NCBI GenBank assembly: GCA_965223845.1
Contig: CBDCXR010000004.1
Span: 2,112,001-2,176,000, forward strand
DNA: 64,000 nt
Direction of reading: 5' to 3'
DNA from: Planctomycetota bacterium
GTDB lineage: Bacteria; Planctomycetota; UBA8108; SXIK01
Part shown: piece after piece, positions 15,295 through 47,870 of the stretch
How positions within the stretch are numbered: the first letter of the stretch is position 1
Layout: every line of letters begins with the position of its first letter
The notes under the pieces: model-generated
Seen by the model: the letters and a program-made list of their open reading frames with translations, nothing else
What the model was told of the DNA's origin: nothing
Database searches by the model: none
Program-made: the position numbers and the translations under genes

Positions 15295-16797
15295 ATGAAC
15301 CCCGTCGACGCGCCGCCCCATCCTCTCCTCGACCGCCGTGGGTTCCTCGGCCGCTTCGGCACGGGTCTCGGTGGCGTCGGACTCACGCATCTCCTCGGCG
15401 CTCAGGGTCTCCTTGCAAGCGAGAGTGGGGAACGCGAACCCGCGAACGACGGACCGATCCGTCCGCGTCTCGACCCCGCTCGCCCACAGGCCCCGCGCGA
15501 TGCGCACTTCGCTCCGGCGGCGCGTCGCGTCATCGTGATCTTCTGCTCCGGAGCGTGCAGCCACCTCGATACGTTCGACTACAAGCCGGAGCTCGTCCGT
15601 CGGCACGGTCAGCCGCTGCCGGGCGGGAAGCTCATCACGTTTCAGGGCGAGCAGGGCAACCTGACGAAGAGCCCGTGGGAATTTCGGCCCTACGGCGAAT
15701 CGGGAAAGATGGTCTCCGACCTCGTCCCGCACCTCGGTGCGCTCGCCGACGACATGTGCTTCGTGCACTCGCTCACGAGCAAGACGAACACGCACGGGCC
15801 CGGCGAGAACTTCATGTCGACGGGATTTACGCTCGACGGATTCCCGAGCATCGGCGCGTGGATAACGTACGCCCTCGGGAGCGAGAGCGAGAATCTCCCG
15901 TCGTTCGTCGCGATTCCCGATCCGCGAGGGACCCCGCAGTCGAGTGTGAACAATTGGGGGCCCGGGTTTCTTCCGGCCGCGTTTCAGGGGACGGACTTCA
16001 ACGCCGCGAAGCCACTGCGAAACCTAGCTCGACCGCCGGCGGTCTCTCCCGAAGCGGACGCTGCGACGCGTCGATTTCTCGCGCGCCAGAACGCGCGTCA
16101 CCTCAAACGATTTCCCGGCGACACTCAGCTCGCCGCGAGGATCTCGAGCTACGAGCTCGCAGCGAAGATGCAGCTCAGCGTGCCGGAAGTCAGCGACATC
16201 TCTTCGGAGCCGGCGCACATCCTTCGTCTCTACGGCGCCGACGACACGCAGAACAAACTTAAGTCCGCGTTCGCTCGCAACTGCATCCTCGCGCGGCGCC
16301 TGGTCGAAAAGGGAGTTCGATTCGTTCAGCTCTTCAACGGCGCGTACCAAACGGGTGGGGAGGGAGTCAGCAACTGGGACGGTCACAAATACCTTCACAA
16401 GCAGTACAGCGTGCACGGGCCGGCGCTCGACCAGCCCGCCGCGGGCCTTCTCATCGATCTCAAGCAGCGCGGCCTTCTCGAAGACACCCTCGTCGTCTGG
16501 TGCACGGAGTTCGGCCGCATGCCGACGTTTCAAAAGGGCGCGAGTGGTCGCGATCACAATCCCTCGGGATTCACCGCGTGGCTCGCCGGAGCCGGCGTGA
16601 AGGCGCCGTTCTCATTCGGCGCCACCGACGAGTTCGGCCATCGTGCGGCGATCGACGTCTCGACCGTCTACGACTTCCACGCGACGATCCTCCATCTCCT
16701 CGGACTCGATCACGAACGGCTGACGTTTTACCACAACGGGATCGAACGACGGCTGACCGACGTCCACGGGCACGTTCTCACGCCGATCCTGAGCTGA
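15295..16797 (+). CDS. DUF1501 domain-containing protein (Tat, sulfatase-like)
   Basis: DRRGFL Tat motif, [29 protein letters not shown]; ATG at 15295 after GGGAGAG. Confidence 0.92.
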
Positions 16798-16830
16798 AGG
16801 CGACCCTGCCAGCCCCGCCCTCCTCCGAAA

Positions 16831-17196
16831 CTAGAGTCGATCGGGCTGAACGACCGTGCGATCGTTCTCGACGTTCCCCGTGTTGAGCGTCGTAGCAGGT
16901 TCGACCATCAGCACCTGAACCTCCTCCACCGCGACGGGCTTGTGCTCAACGCCGCGCGGAACGATGTAAAACTCGCCCTCCTCGAGGTGAACGACCTCGT
17001 CGCGGAAGTGAAGATCAAACTCGCCCTTGACGACGAGAAACATCTCGTCCTCGTCCGCGTGGTGGTGCCAGATGAACTCACCCTGAAACTTCACGAGCTT
17101 CACAAGCTGACCGTTCATCTCGCCCACGATCTTCGGCGACCAATGCTCGGAAAACAGCGCAAACTTCTCCGCAAGATTGACCTTAGCCGCCAGCAT
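16831..17196 (-). CDS. Cupin domain protein (mannose-6-phosphate isomerase-like)
   Basis: WHHHADEDEMF and VPRGVEHKP cupin motifs. Confidence 0.9.
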   Translation of the reverse strand: MLAAKVNLAEKFALFSEHWSPKIVGEMNGQLVKLVKFQGEFIWHHHADEDEMFLVVKGEFDLHFRDEVVHLEEGEFYIVPRGVEHKPVAVEEVQVLMVEPATTLNTGNVENDRTVVQPDRL

Positions 17197-17328
17197 TCAC
17201 ACTCTCCATTCACACTCTCCATTCACACTCTCCATTCACACTCTCCATTCACACTCTCCATTCACACTCTCCATTCACACTCTCCATTCACACTCTCCAT
17301 TCACACTCTCCATTCACACTCTCCATTC
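17194..17328. repeat. Tandem repeat, 10 perfect copies of CATTCACACTCTC (13 bp) plus a partial copy
   Basis: Counted directly: units start at 17194, 17207 ... 17311, then CATTC at 17324; the first unit contains the cupin start codon. Confidence 0.97.
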
Positions 17329-17334
17329 TCTTCC

Positions 17335-17456
17335 CTTCGTGTCCGTCGTGCCCTTCGTGGTCCACTTCCTCTTCCTTTCTCCCCGCTCTCCCGATCTCCC
17401 CGCTCTCGATCTCCTCCTTCGTCTTCCTTCGCGCACCTTCGCGCCCTTCGTGTAAA
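17335..17456. repeat. Pyrimidine-rich region with short ~9-nt periodic CTTCG(T/C)G motifs
   Basis: CTTCGTGTCCGTCGTGCCCTTCGTGGT (17335-17361), CTTCGCGCACCTTCGCGCCCTTCGTGTAAA (17427-17456) and TCTCCCCGCTCTC twice between them. Confidence 0.6.
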
Positions 17457-17471
17457 TCTCCCCGCACCGAC

Positions 17472-19628
17472 TCAAAACCGAATCGTCGCCCCCACCTTCA
17501 CCGCGATCTCCGTCTGATCGACCCGCGGACGCCCCTCGTTCCGGTCGACCTCCTGAGTCAGAACGACAAAGAGATCCGAACCGGGAACGAACTCCCAGCG
17601 AAGCCGACTGTTCACTCCAATTCTGTCGGAGACGTCGTCGTACTGAACGAGGTTGTACCAGATGAGCTCCGTCGTGAAGTTGATCTGCAGCCGCACGGAC
17701 GCGAGCCGCGTGTCGAAGTTCCCTTCGGGCAGTCGAATCTTGTTGAGCTCGTAACCCGTCGACACGCTGAAGTGCCGACTCGGATCGAGCGTAAGGTTCG
17801 CCACCCAGCGGTCGCGGTAGCCGTCGTAAAACGTGCCGATCTCGTACGCCGCATCGAGCTCGACCGGCCGTTTCGTCGCGCTGGCGAATCCGAAACGGTA
17901 GCGCTGCCACCAATACTCGTCCGGCGGGATTGTGACGCCGGGATGGATTTCGAAATCCGCTCGCGGCTCGTCGAAGCGAGTTTGCGTGTTGAAGAAGATT
18001 TCGTCACTCGATTCGAGAAGAAGAAGGATCGGGGTGAGTGAGTAGAGCGCGGTCTCGAGTTCGTCGTCGAGATCCGTCACGTGCTGCTGGAAGTAGCTGA
18101 CGAAGATCCGGCGAAGCCAATCGCTGTCGGGAGTGAAGAATCGGGAGGTCGCCTCGAGTTCGTACGCCCGAATGCCGCGTCTCGGGGCGAATCCGAGGGC
18201 GGGATAGAAATTCTCGTCGAGCTGGTAGTACTTCACGTAGGTGACGAGTTTCTCGTGCTCGGCCAACGCGACACCGGAGAACGCGAGGTTGTCGCTTCCC
18301 GCAACGCCTTCGGTCCAAGTGCCCGAGAGGAACGCGTTTCCACCGAGCGTCCAGTCGTCGATGAGCGTCGTGTTGCGAAAGTTGAAGTCGGTTCCGGCGA
18401 AGAGATTGTCGTTCCTCGAGTTCGGGTCGCCCGCAGTGACGAGCACGCCGAGGGTCGAGTTCTCGAGGACGTTTCGGCTGACGCGCCCGACGAACGCGTT
18501 CCGCGCCGGCAGCCCATCGTGCGAGTCGACGAGAGCGTCGATGACGCCGACGTTGTACTCGCCGACGCGGCCGGTGAGTTTTCCCGCGATGGTGATGGGT
18601 ACTGGCTCACCGCTCGCACTGAGTCCGATTCTCCGGCTGAAGAACGGAATGAGAGCACCGCGCACGTCGCCGAACTCGAAGATACTCGCGTCCTGAAGGA
18701 AGAACTCCCGCTTCTCCGGAAAGAAGAGGGGAAACCTCGTGAGATTGATCTGACGCGCGTCGACTTCGGTTTCCGCGAAGTCGGTGTTGTAGCTGAGGCT
18801 CGCGGTGAGATTCGGAGTGATCGAATAGCGCGCGTCGACACCGGCATCGAAGAGACGATCGACGTCGTCGTCGACACGGTCGTCTCGGTACCGCGCGGCG
18901 CCGTAGGGGCGAATCTCGAGACCGATTCCCTGCTCGAGGCCTTCCAACCCGCCGAGGTCGCCTGCCTCGGAGACATCGTGGTCGCGATAGCGGACCTGCG
19001 CACCGCTCCAGCGAACGATCTCGTCGCGCCGCTTGATGCCGCGAGAGAGATTGAATCCCCAGACCGTCGAATCCGCGGCGAACGCGATCGACGTGTGTGG
19101 AATCGCGACCTCCGCGTACCAGCCTCGCTCGTCGATCGTTGCGTGGGCGTGCCAGACCGCATCCCAGTCGTCATTCGGAATCGGGTGCGCGGAGATGAGT
19201 GCGTCATCGCGCGCGCCGTTCGGATTCACGCGAAAGATATAGCCGTTGCGGCGGTCGAGGAACGTGTCGAGAACGATGGCGACATAGTCGTTCCGAGTGG
19301 TTCGGCCGTCGCGAGCCATTTCGGTAGCGACGATCGCCGCGGGCTCGGTGTCGTAGCACCAAACTGCGACGTAAAGCGCGCGCCGGTCGTAAGCGACGGC
19401 GAATTCCGTCCGCTGCGTGGGCTCCGCACCTTCGTTCGGAAAGGCCTGGAGGAGATTCCCCGCCCGCGGAGTCGTTCGCCACACCGGGTCGTCGAGACGA
19501 CCGTCGATCTTGGGTGGCGTCGTCGCGCGAACTGCATCGATGCGTGGCCGCTCGGCGGAGACCGGCGAGCTCGCGATCGCAGCCAAGGCCACGACGGCGA
19601 TCTGTGCAAAAAGCCCAGACTCCCGCAC
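17472..19628 (-). CDS. CBM9-like/DUF5916 domain outer-membrane protein
   Basis: PKIDGRLDDPVW, NTDFAETEVD, NLTRFPLFFPEKREFF, FFSRRIG; C-terminal Phe; signal peptide. Confidence 0.88.
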   Translation of the reverse strand: MRESGLFAQIAVVALAAIASSPVSAERPRIDAVRATTPPKIDGRLDDPVWRTTPRAGNLLQAFPNEGAEPTQRTEFAVAYDRRALYVAVWCYDTEPAAIVATEMARDGRTTRNDYVAIVLDTFLDRRNGYIFRVNPNGARDDALISAHPIPNDDWDAVWHAHATIDERGWYAEVAIPHTSIAFAADSTVWGFNLSRGIKRRDEIVRWSGAQVRYRDHDVSEAGDLGGLEGLEQGIGLEIRPYGAARYRDDRVDDDVDRLFDAGVDARYSITPNLTASLSYNTDFAETEVDARQINLTRFPLFFPEKREFFLQDASIFEFGDVRGALIPFFSRRIGLSASGEPVPITIAGKLTGRVGEYNVGVIDALVDSHDGLPARNAFVGRVSRNVLENSTLGVLVTAGDPNSRNDNLFAGTDFNFRNTTLIDDWTLGGNAFLSGTWTEGVAGSDNLAFSGVALAEHEKLVTYVKYYQLDENFYPALGFAPRRGIRAYELEATSRFFTPDSDWLRRIFVSYFQQHVTDLDDELETALYSLTPILLLLESSDEIFFNTQTRFDEPRADFEIHPGVTIPPDEYWWQRYRFGFASATKRPVELDAAYEIGTFYDGYRDRWVANLTLDPSRHFSVSTGYELNKIRLPEGNFDTRLASVRLQINFTTELIWYNLVQYDDVSDRIGVNSRLRWEFVPGSDLFVVLTQEVDRNEGRPRVDQTEIAVKVGATIRF

Positions 19629-42287: not shown

Positions 42288-42346
42288 TCGCCGCGACGAG
42301 CGCGGCGCGCGCCCTCTGACGGGCAGCGCGTTCAGACCGCGAAGCG

Positions 42347-42387
42347 AAATGAGAGCGGGCCGCTCGCCGAGCGGCCCGCTCTCATTT
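42347..42387. terminator. Probable bidirectional intrinsic terminator
   Basis: 19-bp perfect stem AAATGAGAGCGGGCCGCTC / GAGCGGCCCGCTCTCATTT between convergent genes. Confidence 0.8.
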
Positions 42388-42407
42388 TCGTAGCGCGAAG
42401 GATGGTC

Positions 42408-43523
42408 TCAGTCGTCGGACGATTCGCCCGCGGCGACCGCCTGAGACTCGACGGCCTCGCTCTCACCGGAGTTGGTGACGTTGTCGGCGACTTCGGCGAT
42501 CGAGGAGAACTCCTTCCAGTAGTCCTCCGGCATGTCGAGCGCGATCTTGAGCGCACCGTTCGAGCCGGCGTACTGAGGTTCCTCGACGGTCGTGACCCGG
42601 CCGCCCCCGTACTCGTCGAGCGCCTCTTCGATCGCGCGGCCGAGGCCGCGAATCTGCGAGCCACCGCCTCCGAGGAGGACGTTGTTGCGCATCTTCGCCT
42701 GGAATTCGGGATCGTAGGTCGCGATGAGATCCTGGAGCGAGGCGACCGTCGGCGGAACGATCGAGTAACAAGCCTCGTAGACGAGATCGGTGATCTCGAA
42801 CTCCTGCGGCTTACCGGCGACGGGCATCGTCACCATGGCGCGATCCATGTTGCGACTGACACTCGCATGCCGCTCCTTGAAGCCGCGCACCATGTTGATC
42901 GAGAACTGCGCCTCGGAGTGGTTCTGGCGAATGAGCTCGCAGAGCTTTTCGTCGACCGCGTCACCGGCGACTTCGTGAGTCCGCTGATCTTCGGGGCCGG
43001 GCATGGTTCCGTGGACTCGACAGAGGTCCGTCGTACCGGCACCGAGGTCGACGACGAGCGTGTCGTCGAGAAAGTCGAGGCCGTACGCGACGGCGAACGG
43101 CTCGGAGCAGATGATGACGCTGTCGGTCGAATTGGACGCGGCCTCGAGAATCGCGGACTTTCCTTCGACGCTCGCCTCGGCCGGAGCGCCGATGACGGCG
43201 TAGACCGTCGCGCCCGACGGTGCCTGAGCGAGGCTGACGGCGTACTCGACGAGATCGCGGAGAGCGCGGCGGCGCTCGTCGGAATCCTGCGCGCCCTTCA
43301 CCTTGATCGACCCGCCGGCGAGCGGACGATGCAGGTTGAGCGACATCCGGTTCTCGACGGCTTCCTTGCCGTAGATGACTTCGCGGCCGCCGAACTTCTT
43401 CCGTGCGACGTGATCCTTCGGATATCCGACGTACGACCAGACCGTTTCCCGGATTCCGGTCGACGCGGTGACGGAAGTGCGACTCGTCCCGAGGTCGATC
43501 CCCAGGTAAACGGTCTCAGACAT
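42408..43523 (-). CDS. mamK: MamK/Mad28-family actin-like ATPase
   Basis: LGIDLGTS, VGYPKD, AVIGAPA, SEPFAVAYGL, VDLGAGTTDLC, GTMPGPEDQ, AGKP, DPEFQ, GGGSQIRGL, GALKIALDMPEDYW match MamK as recalled, not MreB; strong GAGGAGG RBS. Orthology to magnetosome MamK is not established. Confidence 0.85.
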   Translation of the reverse strand: MSETVYLGIDLGTSRTSVTASTGIRETVWSYVGYPKDHVARKKFGGREVIYGKEAVENRMSLNLHRPLAGGSIKVKGAQDSDERRRALRDLVEYAVSLAQAPSGATVYAVIGAPAEASVEGKSAILEAASNSTDSVIICSEPFAVAYGLDFLDDTLVVDLGAGTTDLCRVHGTMPGPEDQRTHEVAGDAVDEKLCELIRQNHSEAQFSINMVRGFKERHASVSRNMDRAMVTMPVAGKPQEFEITDLVYEACYSIVPPTVASLQDLIATYDPEFQAKMRNNVLLGGGGSQIRGLGRAIEEALDEYGGGRVTTVEEPQYAGSNGALKIALDMPEDYWKEFSSIAEVADNVTNSGESEAVESQAVAAGESSDD

Positions 43524-43707
43524 GAATCCTCCTCCTCTGAAGGTTTCTCAGCATCCCGATCGTGTTCGGGTCGGATTACGCGTAGGTGTGGTTCGATCTC
43601 TTCGGAACCGGCGATCGGGTGCCACTCAAGGATGACATCGTTTTTCGAGCTGTCCCACCCGAGCCGCAATCGGTCGGATTTTCGGAATTCGCTGCCCCGA
43701 CGATGAG

Positions 43708-45081
43708 CTACGACTTGAGTGCGGCGACTTCCTCGCGCATCTCTTTGTTCTCGCGGAAGATCGTCGCGAGCAGCTCCTTCTTCTTCTCCTTGAGCGGATC
43801 CTTGTCGATCGTCGAATGAATGACGTTTCGGAGTCCGCTTCCGGACGCTTCGAGCGCGGCGGCCAGTTCGCGAGCTTCGTCGCGCTCGCGCGTGATCGTG
43901 TCGAGGTTTCGCGCGAGACGCTGGATCTTTCGCTCGAGGAGAGTGATTTGATCCTGTTGAGCTCCGCGGCGTTCGCTTTCAACGCGTTCGCGCTCCTGCT
44001 CGAGAAGGCTTCCGATGAGGCTCCGCATCTCTTCGGCGACGTCCTCGGCGACTGGCGTGCGGCGGAGAGCCCGCGCGAGAACGCGTTCGAGGCGTTCCTC
44101 GAGCGCGATCACCGCCGCCTCGGGAAGCGTCTCAGTCTCGCCGACGAGTCCACGCTGAGTCTCGACGGCGGCCTGTGCGCGCTCGAGCTGCTTCCGGAGC
44201 ACCTCCGTCTGCTTCTCTAGACCGTAGCGCTCGGCTTCGAACGTCTCGAAACGCTCGCGGAAGACGTCCTCCGTCTGCGCGAGCATCTCCTTCCGTTCTT
44301 CGTCGGTGATCGCGCGTGTACCGATCGCTTCGGTGACCGCGCCTTGGATCAGCTCCTTGATCGTCTGGGTGTTGAGCACCTTGACGGTCTTGTGCCGCGC
44401 CGCGAGCTCGGCGGCGCTGACCGTGCGCGCCTCGCGGTGGAGGTGAACGGAAACCTCCTCGGCGACGTCGCGAGCTCCCGAGAGCACGGGCGGAGTGTCG
44501 GGATCGATTTCCGCCGGACCCATCCCCGGTAGGAGCGGCGGCAACTCCGTTTCGGATTCCGGCAGTCCCTCCGCGAGCGGCTGGATCGCGGTGGATTCTT
44601 CGGGCTCGCTTTCCGCCAAGACCGGTGGGGCACTCTCGCGCGCCCTCGGGATGCGGATCAAGGTGGACTCGTTCGGATCGGGCAGATCGATCTCTGAGGA
44701 AGCTTCCGCGCCATCTTCGCCTTCTTCTCCGTCTTCCGGGAGGAGGTGATCGCGCACAAAGCGACCGAGCTCGGTCTTTTGTTCCGGGTCGGAGTGCACC
44801 CAGCGGAGGGCGTAGGTCCGAATCTCCTCGTCCACTTCCTGATCGGACGAGAAGACGTCGTCTTCGCATTCGAGAATCTGCGCCGCGAGGTTCTTCCGAG
44901 CGGTCTTCCCGATCTGAAGAATCACGTCGACGTACATTCCGAGCGTCAATTCTTCGAGCGTGAGGACGATTCCCTTCCGCGTGCTGATGGCGGCGAGCGT
45001 GACGCACTGCGGCCCGACCCGAGGGTCGTCGAAGAAGCACGTACAGCGAAGATCGGTCGCGTCGGCGGTGGAGTCTTTCAC
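43708..45081 (-). CDS. Hypothetical protein: degenerate PilZ-like N-terminus, acidic Pro/Glu-rich linker, C-terminal coiled coil
   Basis: Beta-rich N-terminus ending YALRWVHSDPEQKTELGRFV; EDGEEGEDGAEASSEIDLPDP linker; heptad-like C-terminus LLERKIQRLARNL...KKKELLATIFRENKEMRE; start uncertain (GTG 45081 or ATG 44937). Confidence 0.75.
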   Translation of the reverse strand: MKDSTADATDLRCTCFFDDPRVGPQCVTLAAISTRKGIVLTLEELTLGMYVDVILQIGKTARKNLAAQILECEDDVFSSDQEVDEEIRTYALRWVHSDPEQKTELGRFVRDHLLPEDGEEGEDGAEASSEIDLPDPNESTLIRIPRARESAPPVLAESEPEESTAIQPLAEGLPESETELPPLLPGMGPAEIDPDTPPVLSGARDVAEEVSVHLHREARTVSAAELAARHKTVKVLNTQTIKELIQGAVTEAIGTRAITDEERKEMLAQTEDVFRERFETFEAERYGLEKQTEVLRKQLERAQAAVETQRGLVGETETLPEAAVIALEERLERVLARALRRTPVAEDVAEEMRSLIGSLLEQERERVESERRGAQQDQITLLERKIQRLARNLDTITRERDEARELAAALEASGSGLRNVIHSTIDKDPLKEKKKELLATIFRENKEMREEVAALKS

Positions 45082-45443
45082 GCGGGGCCGCTGGATCGTG
45101 GGGGCTGGATCGTAAGGATCGGCCGTCTGCGCCGCGAACGGACGACGAACGGCAGGAGGGCGGCGAGATCGCCGAATCGGTCCGAGCTCGACTCGAGACG
45201 GGATCGCGAGTCGCTGGACGACCCCCCGGCACGATGCGAACGGACAGCTACCGAAATATAGGACAGTCGCGCACGATCCGGCAAACCGGCGCAACGGCGG
45301 ACGGGGAGTCGACACAATCCCGTCACGCGAGGAGAGATACGTCCCGCCCGCGTGACCTCGATCGCGGCGATGAGAGAGTTATCGGAGAAACGGCGTGATT
45401 GGCCCGGGAATTGCCTTCAAGAGCCGGCACCGCGCACCGGGTC

Positions 45444-47870
45444 TCATCTCTCCGCGAGCTCCTCGAACGATCGGTTCTCGATCGCGTAGCTCTTCCAGCT
45501 CTGAAAGTCGAAATGCCACCACTCGTACTCGTAGACGGTGAAGCCCGCATCCGCCATCGCGCGCCGAAGGAGCCCTCGCAGGTATCGCTGTCGCGACGAG
45601 CCGCCGACGTAGTTCGGGTACGCGCGCTCGGTGAACTCGTCGTAGCCGCTCAGCATCGCGACGGGCTCCCCCGTAGCGCGATCGTAAAGCGTGATGTCGA
45701 CCGCGCAACCGCGGTTGTGACGCGAGCCCTTCGCGGGATCGGCGACGAAGTCGCGCTTCGCCTCGGGCGTTCCGTCCCAGAACATCTTCGTCACGCTCCA
45801 AGGACGATACGCATCGTGGACGAGGATCCCGTACCCGCGCGCCTCGAGCGCCCGGTGGACGCGGACGAGTGCCTGGGCCGCCGGGCGCTGCAGATAGGCC
45901 GCCGCCGTGCGATAGAACGCTGCCCCCATAAAGTTGTTCGTGCCGGCGTAGCGGATGTCGTAGCGGAGGGTCGGGTCGAGGGACTTCAGCTCCACGAGAT
46001 CGGACGGTAGAAACTCGCCGTCCTCCGCGGGCGGTGTCGCCTCCCGAGCCGCGGCGCGAAGCTCCTCGATCGGCTGTGTCAGCTCGATGCGGAACGACTC
46101 TCCCAGAGATGAACTTTCGGGCCGCCGACGGAATGCGATTCCCGCCGCGGTCACCTGTTCGACGGTGCCGTCGGCACCGCGCGAAAACACGAGGCGTTCG
46201 CCGTGGTAGAGACCCCAATCGGGAAAGCGGAAGACGTCCGGAGAAATCTCGTCGATCGGGTAGAGATCGATCCACTCGATGAGAACGAAGAGCTGACCGT
46301 AGCGCTCGAGGACGAAAAGGACGTTGTGATCCTGACCGTACTCCCCGAGAAGCGGTCGCCACTTCTCCGGCGCGGGCGCAGGGAGCGCGTCCGCGATGCG
46401 AGTGAAGACGCGGCGTCCGACGCGGAGGCCGCGCCCGACCTCGACCGAGACCGGAACTCCGAAGTGGTGGCGATCGTCGGTCTGGAGCTCGCCACCGACG
46501 AGTCGCAGCTCGGCGATCGACTGGCGGCCGTCGATGAGAACGAGGCGATCGTCCCGGCGCTCCAGCTCGACGAAGCGCTGGCCGTCGCGATAGAGTCCCG
46601 CCCATTCGAGATGGCGGGGTTCCGGGGGGCGGGACGGTGCCGGCACCGTGAAAGTTCCACCGCGGCTGGTCTCGAGAAGCCCTTCGAGCGCCGTACGGGC
46701 GATGCGCCCGACCACCGCGTTCGTCACGTCGAGGGACGACGCGGCGACGACCGCGAGACGTCGATCGGGGAGAACTTGAAACGAACTCGAGTACCCGTAG
46801 ATCGCGCCATCGTGCGAGACGCGGCGTTCGCCCTGAAACTCGGACACGAAGAATCCGAGTCCGAATCCGCGCTCGGCGCCGGATTGAACCTTCCACATCG
46901 ATTCGAGCACGGGCCGCGAGACGCCGGGAACGCCGGGGCCATCGTCGTCCGAGAAAAGCGCGATCGCGAATCGTGCGAGATCCTCGACGCTCGAGTAGAG
47001 ATTCCCGGCCGAAGACGTTCCGAGCGCGAACCCGGGCGCGGCGAATCGGCGCCCGTCGAGACTCCACATGAAGGCGGAGGCGAGTCGTTCGCTCGGGATG
47101 TCACTCGCCTCGAACGAGCTCGCCGCCATTCCGAGCGGCAGTAGGAAGCGCCGTCGAATCTCTGCGGCGAACGGGCGATCCCAAGCTACCTCGAGCGCGC
47201 GACCGGCGACCGCGAGCGCAGCGTTCGAATACTTCGTCCGCGAGCCGGGTCGATAGACGAGCCGGGTCGAGTTCAAGCTCGCAACCGTATCGGCGAGCGA
47301 AGGCGACGTGGCGTCGAAATAGTGGCCGACGGGAGGCTCTCGGACTAGTCCGGAGCGGTGGGAGAGCACCTGGCGAAGCGTGAGCGGCGGCGCGTCGAAC
47401 GGATCCTGCGGAGAAAACTCGGGCAGAACATCGGTGATGGGCGCATCGAGATCGAGCTTGTCTTCGGCATCGAGCTGGGCGAGAGCGAGTGCGGTGAAGA
47501 GCTTCGATACGGATCCAACACGGTAGATCGTCTCGCCGGAAGCTCGGCGGGTACGTGCGTCGTCTTCCCACCCGAAACCGCGTGACCAAAGAAGTTCACC
47601 GTCGCGAACGAGCGCGATCGAGAGCGCAGGGATCTCCTTTGCCTCGCGTTCCGCTTCGATCCAGCTCGCCAGGTCGTCGAGCCAGCCCTCGACGGGGGCG
47701 ACTCTCGCCGCGTCGCGCGCGCTTTCGCCGGTATCTGAAGTCGAGCGGCACGAAGCTGCCCCGGCGATGATCGCCGCGACGAGAAGATACGATGTCGCCG
47801 AAGGATCGCGCCCGGTCGCGATCGAACGGAGACGACAGCCGATGCGGTAACCGCGCCTACTCCAAATCAC
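45444..47870 (-). CDS. Serine hydrolase (beta-lactamase/PBP family) fused to D-Ala-D-Ala dipeptidase (VanX/M15)
   Basis: SVSK, YSN, HDG serine-hydrolase motifs; DAYRP, SRHNRGCAVD, EWWHF VanX motifs; lipobox GAASC. Confidence 0.9.
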   Translation of the reverse strand: MIWSRRGYRIGCRLRSIATGRDPSATSYLLVAAIIAGAASCRSTSDTGESARDAARVAPVEGWLDDLASWIEAEREAKEIPALSIALVRDGELLWSRGFGWEDDARTRRASGETIYRVGSVSKLFTALALAQLDAEDKLDLDAPITDVLPEFSPQDPFDAPPLTLRQVLSHRSGLVREPPVGHYFDATSPSLADTVASLNSTRLVYRPGSRTKYSNAALAVAGRALEVAWDRPFAAEIRRRFLLPLGMAASSFEASDIPSERLASAFMWSLDGRRFAAPGFALGTSSAGNLYSSVEDLARFAIALFSDDDGPGVPGVSRPVLESMWKVQSGAERGFGLGFFVSEFQGERRVSHDGAIYGYSSSFQVLPDRRLAVVAASSLDVTNAVVGRIARTALEGLLETSRGGTFTVPAPSRPPEPRHLEWAGLYRDGQRFVELERRDDRLVLIDGRQSIAELRLVGGELQTDDRHHFGVPVSVEVGRGLRVGRRVFTRIADALPAPAPEKWRPLLGEYGQDHNVLFVLERYGQLFVLIEWIDLYPIDEISPDVFRFPDWGLYHGERLVFSRGADGTVEQVTAAGIAFRRRPESSSLGESFRIELTQPIEELRAAAREATPPAEDGEFLPSDLVELKSLDPTLRYDIRYAGTNNFMGAAFYRTAAAYLQRPAAQALVRVHRALEARGYGILVHDAYRPWSVTKMFWDGTPEAKRDFVADPAKGSRHNRGCAVDITLYDRATGEPVAMLSGYDEFTERAYPNYVGGSSRQRYLRGLLRRAMADAGFTVYEYEWWHFDFQSWKSYAIENRSFEELAER

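Follow-up and report, generated by a model that had tools for sequence, protein, structure and literature searches.

A candidate filament-plus-adaptor gene pair, independent of magnetosomes, in a Planctomycetota chromosome

What does an actin gene related to mamK do in a bacterium in which no magnetosome genes can be found? The question is raised by a locus in the window analyzed here, a stretch of 64,000 nucleotides from a Planctomycetota bacterium (contig CBDCXR010000004.1, positions 2,112,001 to 2,176,000), where a gene for a 371-residue actin-like protein follows a co-oriented gene for a 457-residue protein that we call the partner. The first-pass annotation, made from the sequence, had proposed an orphan MamK-type actin and its partner as an undescribed cytoskeletal system. 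Our reading, to which we assign a probability of roughly 0.6, is that the locus is a chromosomal two-gene unit composed of an actin-like filament protein and a dedicated adaptor, and that this pair is a real, conserved module unrelated to magnetosomes. The claim of novelty stands for the partner family and falls for the actin, which is of the already named saltatorellin type.

Judged by its sequence, the 371-residue protein has the phosphate- and adenosine-binding motifs of an actin-fold ATPase. In the nucleotide-binding motifs, residues D10, G12, D159, G161-T164, and G286-G288 do not vary among 40 aligned relatives, and E141 is nearly invariant. The protein starts five residues ahead of the conserved core, with the GIDLG motif at residue 8, and its last 33 residues form an acidic tail with an isoelectric point (pI) of 4.05. 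The MamK-family signatures noted at first were recovered in that MamK ranks first among the family models and also among the solved structures, yet the score of 384 bits on the NCBIfam MamK model (NF040964) is below the curated cut-off of 400; MamK proteins from magnetosome loci L060 and L063 scored 510 and 518 bits. The nearest solved chains by sequence were MamK (5jyg, expect value (E) 9.7e-75), BeeR (8r2n, E 2e-38), and MreB (E 6.9e-9). On the NCBIfam BeeR model (NF053558) the actin reached 194.7 bits against a cut-off of 530, and on two MreB family models it reached 58.7 bits (cut-off 293) and 46.7 bits (cut-off 365.75). Pfam matches were distant, with MreB_Mbl first (E 1e-17), followed by Salactin and Actin, and a ParM_N match (E 9.5e-4) fell under its cut-off.

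A 2019 preprint on the Saltatorellota (bioRxiv 10.1101/817700, main text) gives the name saltatorellin to a MamK-like actin from Saltatorellus ferox and describes filaments of its mCherry fusion in E. coli and in a mamK mutant of Magnetospirillum gryphiswaldense. The S. ferox Poly30 locus was fetched with the published primer, and the window actin was found to be 56% identical to saltatorellin over 339 residues. Identity was 67-82% across most of the actin's close clade and 39-41% to MamK of magnetosome loci. One primer match (1/10), L064, was not an actin gene, had a branch length of 10 in the first tree, and was dropped.

Two quick maximum-likelihood trees were rooted on the genome's own MreB, with support from the Shimodaira-Hasegawa-like approximate likelihood ratio test (SH-aLRT) only and no bootstraps. 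The first left out two truncated actins (L046 and L053); the second, of 71 rows, also omitted L064, six near-identical Verrucomicrobiota rows, L020, L036, L014, L058, and L003, the last of these being the genome's own very divergent paralogue. MamK was represented by three sequences, all of them alphaproteobacterial. In the second tree, a Planctomycetota radiation of 51 rows (SH-aLRT 89) holds both saltatorellin and the window actin, the former in a subclade with support 98 and the latter in its own subclade of 36 rows with support 100. The three MamK sequences from alphaproteobacterial magnetosome loci fall outside this radiation, as do two archaeal sequences and two other groups of Planctomycetota; the tree does not settle the order in which these branch at its base.

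On this sequence evidence the actin is of the saltatorellin type, taken here as a sister group of MamK. A grouping with MreB is ruled out both by the family score (58.7 bits versus 293) and by the placement in a MamK-type clade of the MreB-rooted tree. Because the protein belongs to the same Planctomycetota radiation as saltatorellin, it can no longer be called an orphan or undescribed: close relatives are found in 142 of 401 sampled Planctomycetota genomes, and saltatorellin has been both named and reported to form filaments (bioRxiv 10.1101/817700, main text). With the window actin, a family that so far has a name but has received little study gains a new member. In the main text of that preprint, none of the words coiled, operon, upstream, neighbo-, and PilZ occurs. 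An actin-like protein of Uabimicrobium that we met in the literature is a lokiactin homologue and a different protein. MamK-like actins 41-42% identical to the window's also occur in three archaeal loci (L057-L059, from metagenome genomes of Methanosarcinales and ANME-2); L057, the one of the three that was scanned, scored 370 bits on NCBIfam MamK, and none of the three has a partner homologue beside the actin.

The kinship to MamK bears on a rival explanation, in which the pair is what is left of a magnetosome system or a piece separated from one. MamK is indeed the best-scoring family model, at 384 bits, and magnetosome clusters are reported in Planctomycetes metagenomes (PMC12748827, in part). 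The whole genome (7.9 Mb, 91.7% complete) was searched by tblastn with ten Mam proteins and one MamJ-like open reading frame (ORF) from two true magnetosome loci; these two alphaproteobacterial reference loci score on NCBIfam models as MamE, MamM, MamO, MamP, MamA, MamQ, MamN, and MamL. The matches were the actin paralogues, generic HtrA-type protease domains, one LemA-like protein, and one TPR protein, scattered over the chromosome, and MamM, MamP, MamN, MamL, and the MamJ-like ORF had no hit anywhere in the genome. Family models reached 33 bits for MamB (cut-off 350), 24 for MamP (cut-off 300), and 70 for MamO (cut-off 800), scores no better than those in non-magnetotactic control genomes. 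The partner profile found nothing at E<=10 in magnetosome loci L060, L061, and L063, where the MamJ comparison was with the ORF upstream of mamK and not with a reference MamJ. The lack of mam genes first noticed in the window extends to the assembled 7.9-Mb genome by both tblastn and family models, and a complete magnetosome cluster elsewhere in it was looked for and not found. Together with the position of the actin outside the clade of the three sampled alphaproteobacterial MamK sequences, these results largely refute the rival in which the pair belongs, or once belonged, to a magnetosome system, which we regard as improbable in the extreme.

The pairing of the two genes was examined in 59 fetched loci containing the actin, of which 53 are from Planctomycetota or Verrucomicrobiota, three archaeal, and three magnetotactic. 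The partner stands beside the actin in 47 of the 53 (46 by clustering and L038 by profile search), and the proposed tie between the upstream gene and the actin is upheld in relatives. Five of the six loci that lack it have 387 bases or fewer on the upstream side. The partner lies upstream of the actin in 39 loci and 79-80 bp downstream in eight Verrucomicrobiota loci, so that the pairing has held even where the gene order differs. No partner match was obtained in the three archaeal and three magnetotactic loci even at E<=10. No other neighbor of the pair is conserved beyond the closest relative, L005. The eight Verrucomicrobiota metagenome loci (L028, L030-L035, and L044) are near-identical, and their partner has no PilZ head. 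Because these sequences nest inside a Planctomycetota actin subclade, they suggest a single transfer between phyla that was followed by rearrangement.

The association was also followed in an even sample of 401 Planctomycetota genomes, 244 of them of high quality. The actin was detected at E<=1e-60 in 142 of the 401 and in 83 of the 244 high-quality genomes, its presence within genome families being mostly all or none, and the profile of the partner's helical domain matched at E<=1e-6 in 131 of the 401. Among the matches listed, a partner match lies within 3 kb of at least 41 of 44 close-clade actins and of at least 50 of 106 more distant ones, and in 90 of these 91 pairs the partner is upstream on the same strand. 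Adjacency of this kind might serve regulation only, with products that never touch, and the contact described below is backed by a structure model alone. On the other side, the two genes have stayed adjacent despite deep divergence and a reversed gene order, and conservation of the partner is highest where it is predicted to contact the actin. We consider an association for regulation only unlikely.

The partner was modeled with AlphaFold2 from 41 aligned sequences, with a mean predicted local distance difference test score (pLDDT) of 74. Its head is modeled as a six-stranded β-barrel followed by a helix, at a pLDDT of about 95. A Foldseek search of the PDB with the model returned 23 matches at E<=0.001, and those listed are PilZ domains; the top hits were MotI (5vx6), YcgR (5y6f), and Alg44 (4rt0), with PlzA, BcsA, MrkH, and MapZ also represented, and the template modeling score of the head on its target was up to 0.74 (Alg44, 4rt0). 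As modeled, the head is a PilZ fold, which confirms a guess made from the letters. The linker that follows is made up of 26% Asp plus Glu and 17% Pro over residues 113-205 and has a pI of 4.05, and residues 203-456 are modeled as long helices. The β-barrel-like N terminus and very acidic Pro/Glu linker of the original description reappear in this analysis, and where it had a long coiled coil the model has long helices.

No family in Pfam or NCBIfam matched the partner, and its profile found no solved relative in the PDB, where there were weak coiled-coil matches only (E >= 0.09). Residues 205-457 gave generic coiled-coil clusters at 0.85 in the ESM Atlas, for which the level that counts is 0.9. 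Among 1.84 billion representative proteins, the helical-domain profile matched 889 at E<=1e-3, of which 177 also reach E<=1e-30. The Pfam PilZ model matched five of 41 partner homologues (best E 1.9e-5), and one database homologue has a precomputed PF07238 hit. Short motifs were counted over 153 partner-family proteins, a set with overlaps that comprises the window's own protein, eight word-based homologues, and the best 150 representatives. GTRRVxRP repeats in the linker were present in 35 of these, DPDDxxW in 84, and PPPLER-like tails in 40. In long homologues such as P0003-P0008, L006, L007, L012, and L016, GTRRVxRP is repeated in the linker, and an acidic C-terminal tail carries one or two copies of DPDDxPWE ... 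VKKI ... PPPLERK. The window's partner is a short form because it is without the GTRRVxRP, DPDDxxW, and PPPLER-like motifs of the longer homologues.

A complex of the actin with partner residues 200-457 was modeled with a separate alignment for each chain. The complex scored 0.71, against 0.00 for the highest of three controls; 58 of 80 solved complexes and two of 110 mismatched pairs attain this mark, a calibration that is only approximate here because the alignments were our own. Three runs agreed in at least 59% of contacts, with a partner pLDDT of at least 57. The predicted actin-binding element is the last helix of the partner, which contains the nearly invariant residues K434 and N445. 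On the actin side, the modeled interface comprises residues 119-127, 137-153, 172-174, and 327-339, a site that, from actin-fold topology, we take to be the cleft where subdomains IA and IIA meet. With the S. ferox ORF that precedes the saltatorellin gene, the partner has only residues 378-454 in common (E 1e-5), a segment with the last helix inside it. The complex model supports binding of the partner to the actin but does not show it.

From these elements a mechanism can be sketched. The actin would polymerize with ATP into dynamic filaments, as its S. ferox relative was shown to do when expressed in other hosts. The adaptor would grip it by the conserved last helix, residues 430-455, predicted to sit in a cleft formed by the actin hinge helix 137-153, the nearby hairpin 172-174, and the C-terminal helix 327-339. 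The adaptor is probably a dimer, held together by its long helices, and the flexible acidic linker would carry the PilZ-fold head as a cargo-binding or signal-input end. The first suggestion of a role in organelle positioning, cell shape, or division is speculative.

The same predicted contact, in the cleft of actin residues 137-153, 172-174, and 327-339, can be read differently, with the partner acting mainly as a regulator of polymerization (a cap, nucleator, or monomer binder) that is switched by its head and does not tether cargo. In other actins the IA/IIA-type cleft takes part in contacts along the filament, which counts in favor of a regulator. MamJ and LimJ, moreover, are cited as regulators of MamK dynamics (PMC12748827, in part). 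The combination of a head, a long flexible linker, and long helices is instead what a bridging protein would need, and the extra short motifs at both ends of many homologues suggest further binding partners. A role mainly in regulation is a serious but doubtful alternative, and regulation and cargo tethering are compatible with each other.

A helix seated in an actin cleft is also what is found for ParR and ParM, and the two-gene layout of an actin plus an adaptor is common to both. A DNA segregation system of this type, in which a pushing filament would be joined to DNA by the partner, nonetheless finds little else in its favor. Neither Pfam nor NCBIfam detects a DNA-binding domain in the partner, the head of which has a PilZ fold; the ParM_N match of the actin (E 9.5e-4) is below cut-off; the locus is chromosomal, with the G+C content of its surroundings and housekeeping-type neighbors; and the presence of the actin follows genome families across the phylum. 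We judge DNA segregation very unlikely.

The head of the partner differs in other lineages. Twenty further loci of more distant actins were fetched, with the actin present in all 20, and a PilZ-like head was found in none of their upstream ORFs (0/20). Two of the upstream proteins, in L102 (1617-2780) and L106 (1584-2666), instead open with a GGDEF domain, at 55.7 and 65.4 bits, respectively, against a cut-off of 23.8. The GGDEF catalytic signature is degenerate in both (TGDRL and QDDRI), and an RxxD motif is kept five residues upstream. We take RxxD before a degenerate GGDEF to be the inhibitory site for cyclic di-GMP (c-di-GMP), a pattern of c-di-GMP binding and not of synthesis. In L112 (1643-3606) and L113 (1815-3958) the partner appears, by eye only, to be split over two adjacent ORFs, one with a shared N-terminal domain and helices and the other with helices and the C-terminal actin-binding module. 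The partner head is exchangeable because other lineages carry a degenerate GGDEF head or none, and at the level of domain composition it is a swappable module of the kind used in c-di-GMP signaling. A link of the module to c-di-GMP is possible from the heads of the relatives; the motifs of the window's own partner do not support it.

Several observations weigh against the pair being a filament protein with a dedicated, signal-responsive adaptor. The Pfam PilZ model (PF07238) misses the window's partner even at E 0.1. The c-di-GMP-binding motifs of PilZ domains are RxxxR and [D/N]xSxxG. The window's partner has no RxxxR ahead of the barrel, and it reads AISTRKG where relatives have EISxxG, departing from [D/N]xSxxG; canonical c-di-GMP binding by this protein is therefore doubtful. 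RxxxR is likewise missing ahead of the barrel in the gene-called homologues P0003-P0008, and any RxxxR within the first 35 residues was found in 14 of 96 head-bearing representatives. As to linkage, L047 has 5.2 kb of upstream sequence, yet no partner was found there. The partner profile matches the adjacent upstream ORF in only 13 of the 20 distant loci; of the other seven, L102, L112, and L113 show the C-terminal module by eye only, and four loci of genome family f57 have unrelated upstream genes. Finally, the proposed partner-actin binding draws on one model-based score, and a helix placed in the IA/IIA cleft could cap filaments or sequester monomers and not tether cargo.

The partner profile had one more hit in the genome, an ORF at C4:7734496-7735575 (E 1.8e-7, profile positions 6-77). 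The gene after it encodes a Volactin-family actin (PF25216, E 1.4e-86), and the two genes together span C4:7734496-7736639 (L093:4536-6640). Volactin-family actins were present in 147 of the 401 sampled Planctomycetota genomes, and of the partner-profile matches not beside a saltatorellin-type actin, 29 of 52 among the matches listed lie upstream of a volactin-type gene on the same strand. A profile-profile comparison of the partner alignment with 16 volactin-linked upstream proteins gave a probability of 98.9% (E 3.4e-17, 84 columns). Partner residues 205-286 align with the N terminus of the volactin-linked proteins, defining a shared domain of about 85 residues, and the latter proteins have a conserved last helix of their own. 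BLASTP of the window's partner against the genome's volactin-linked protein found nothing (E 7.1), and profile methods alone show the shared domain. The volactin-linked profile gave weak coiled-coil matches only in the PDB (E >= 0.005). Among the volactin papers listed, most are on Haloferax or haloarchaea and, by title and the start of the abstract, none deals with bacteria; the main text of the defining volactin paper has no mention of Planctomycetes.

The genome has at least five actin-fold genes: MreB, the saltatorellin-type gene, a BeeR-like gene, a divergent BeeR/MamK-like gene, and the volactin-like gene. The BeeR-like paralogue (C4:500532-501560; L002, L094) scores 386.6 bits against the BeeR cut-off of 530, and the very divergent paralogue (C4:7149024-7150094; L003, L095) scores 130.6 bits for BeeR and 109.2 bits for MamK. 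The large ORFs beside both paralogues have no Pfam match.

A wider reading would place the partner in a Planctomycetota superfamily of modular adaptors, built from the shared domain of about 85 residues, long helices, a last helix specific to one actin family (saltatorellin-type or volactin-type), and sometimes a head from the c-di-GMP toolkit, which would couple c-di-GMP to the placement or dynamics of cytomotive filaments. We put this forward tentatively, as a possibility with the odds somewhat against it, and we know of nothing comparable described for bacterial actins. In the literature searched, the partner family appears to be undescribed, including its docking helix, its PilZ and GGDEF heads, and its kinship to the volactin-linked proteins.

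The features of the locus are collected in Table 1. The co-oriented actin gene, its strong ribosome-binding site, and the gap behind the partner gene are all present as first described, the ribosome-binding site being a purine run, GGAGGAGGA, at 43527-43535 that ends 3 nt ahead of the ATG. At its full extent the partner ORF covers 43708-45315 on the minus strand, and the 457-residue translation used here is identical to an existing database gene call (P0001); a strong ribosome-binding site was not found in the sequence read upstream of its GTG. The unit was said to close with a strong terminator, and a stable hairpin is indeed seen there, with a GC-rich stem of 16 bp placed 22 nt past the actin stop codon, where the actin gene and an oxidoreductase gene converge. 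The hairpin folds with a free energy of -46.8 kcal/mol (z = -7.25; none of 200 shuffles folds equally well), though the U-tract behind it is weak. A promoter consensus scan of the region found one site, versus 0.3 expected by chance, and the same kind of scan gave no promoter-like or terminator-like site on the minus strand of the spacer.

Table 1. Positions of the actin-partner pair and its predicted elements in the 64-kb window
Feature	Partner residues or length	Window positions	Strand	Basis
Actin gene	371 aa	42408-43523	minus	ORF, ATG start
Partner (adaptor) gene	457 aa	43708-45081	minus	ORF from GTG at 45081
PilZ-fold head	residues 5-113	44743-45069	minus	AlphaFold2 and Foldseek
Acidic proline-rich disordered linker	residues 114-202	44476-44742	minus	pLDDT <50
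Conserved helical domain, no known family	residues 203-457	43711-44475	minus	alignment and profile
C-terminal helix, predicted actin-binding element	residues 430-455	43717-43794	minus	complex model interface
Spacer between partner and actin genes	184 bp	43524-43707	minus	
Terminator-like hairpin		42345-42390 (core 42350-42384)	minus	fold energy
Sigma-70-like promoter match upstream of partner gene		45255-45284	minus	9/12 consensus positions; weak evidence

The pair is set among housekeeping-type neighbors, namely oxidoreductases and a beta-lactamase/peptidase M15 fusion, with an even G+C content across the region. The fusion, directly upstream of the partner (45444-47870, minus strand), is a protein of 808 residues with a serine beta-lactamase-type domain (E 7.2e-61) and a D-Ala-D-Ala dipeptidase M15 domain (E 5e-30); its gene is beside the pair in no relative examined. 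Six flanking proteins were checked in relatives, and three recur, only in L005. The genome's MreB gene is separate, about 21 kb past the end of the window. Rfam gave no family match across the whole window. Elsewhere in it, at 16001-18000, G+C falls to 0.605 and GC skew to -0.17; this interval includes about 675 bp (16797-17472) in which no ORF reaches 200 aa and no Rfam family matches.

To our knowledge, Planctomycetota lack FtsZ, and how shape, division, and internal membranes are organized in this phylum is largely open. An actin conserved in about a third of the sampled genomes offers a concrete and testable cytoskeletal module, for which the partner supplies a predicted binding peptide and a binding site. 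Through heads of the PilZ and GGDEF kinds, c-di-GMP might have a way to influence a bacterial actin, and the related partner beside a volactin-like actin suggests one adaptor design for several filament systems. Experiments are within reach because S. ferox Poly30, which has a minimal version of the pair, can be cultivated.

Among known systems, ParM/ParR resembles the pair as modeled: its filament is actin-like, and its adaptor uses a terminal helix to bind the actin cleft. It differs in that the window's partner lacks a DNA-binding domain, the locus is chromosomal, and the ParM match is below cut-off. In MamK/MamJ, too, the gene just upstream of that for the actin codes for an acidic protein. 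The window genome, however, is without magnetosome genes, its actin scores 384 bits where true MamK reaches 510-518, and its partner has no detectable homology to the gene upstream of mamK. Desulfovibrio magneticus offers a parallel in concept, with a network of coiled-coil Mad proteins alongside the actin-like MamK and Mad28; unlike the window pair, these are encoded in a magnetosome cluster (PMC12748827, in part).

BeeR, a three-stranded tubular actin of Verrucomicrobiota (PMC11929497, in part), belongs to the same MamK-related superfamily as the window actin and occurs in non-magnetotactic relatives of the phylum. The hallmark of its family is a disordered N-terminal extension of 30-50 residues (PMC11929497, in part), which the window actin lacks, scoring 194.7 bits against 530. 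The PilZ effectors YcgR, MotI, and Alg44 share the fold of the partner head, in which the c-di-GMP motifs are non-canonical; by title, no PilZ protein tied to an actin-like filament was found in the literature searched.

The saltatorellin locus of S. ferox offers the remaining comparison. Its actin belongs to a separate sister subclade (support 98, versus 100 for that of the window actin) of the same radiation, and the window actin has in addition its 33-residue acidic tail. The ORF upstream of saltatorellin is without the PilZ head and most of the helical domain, but it is likewise co-oriented with the actin gene and shares the C-terminal module of the partner (E 1e-5).

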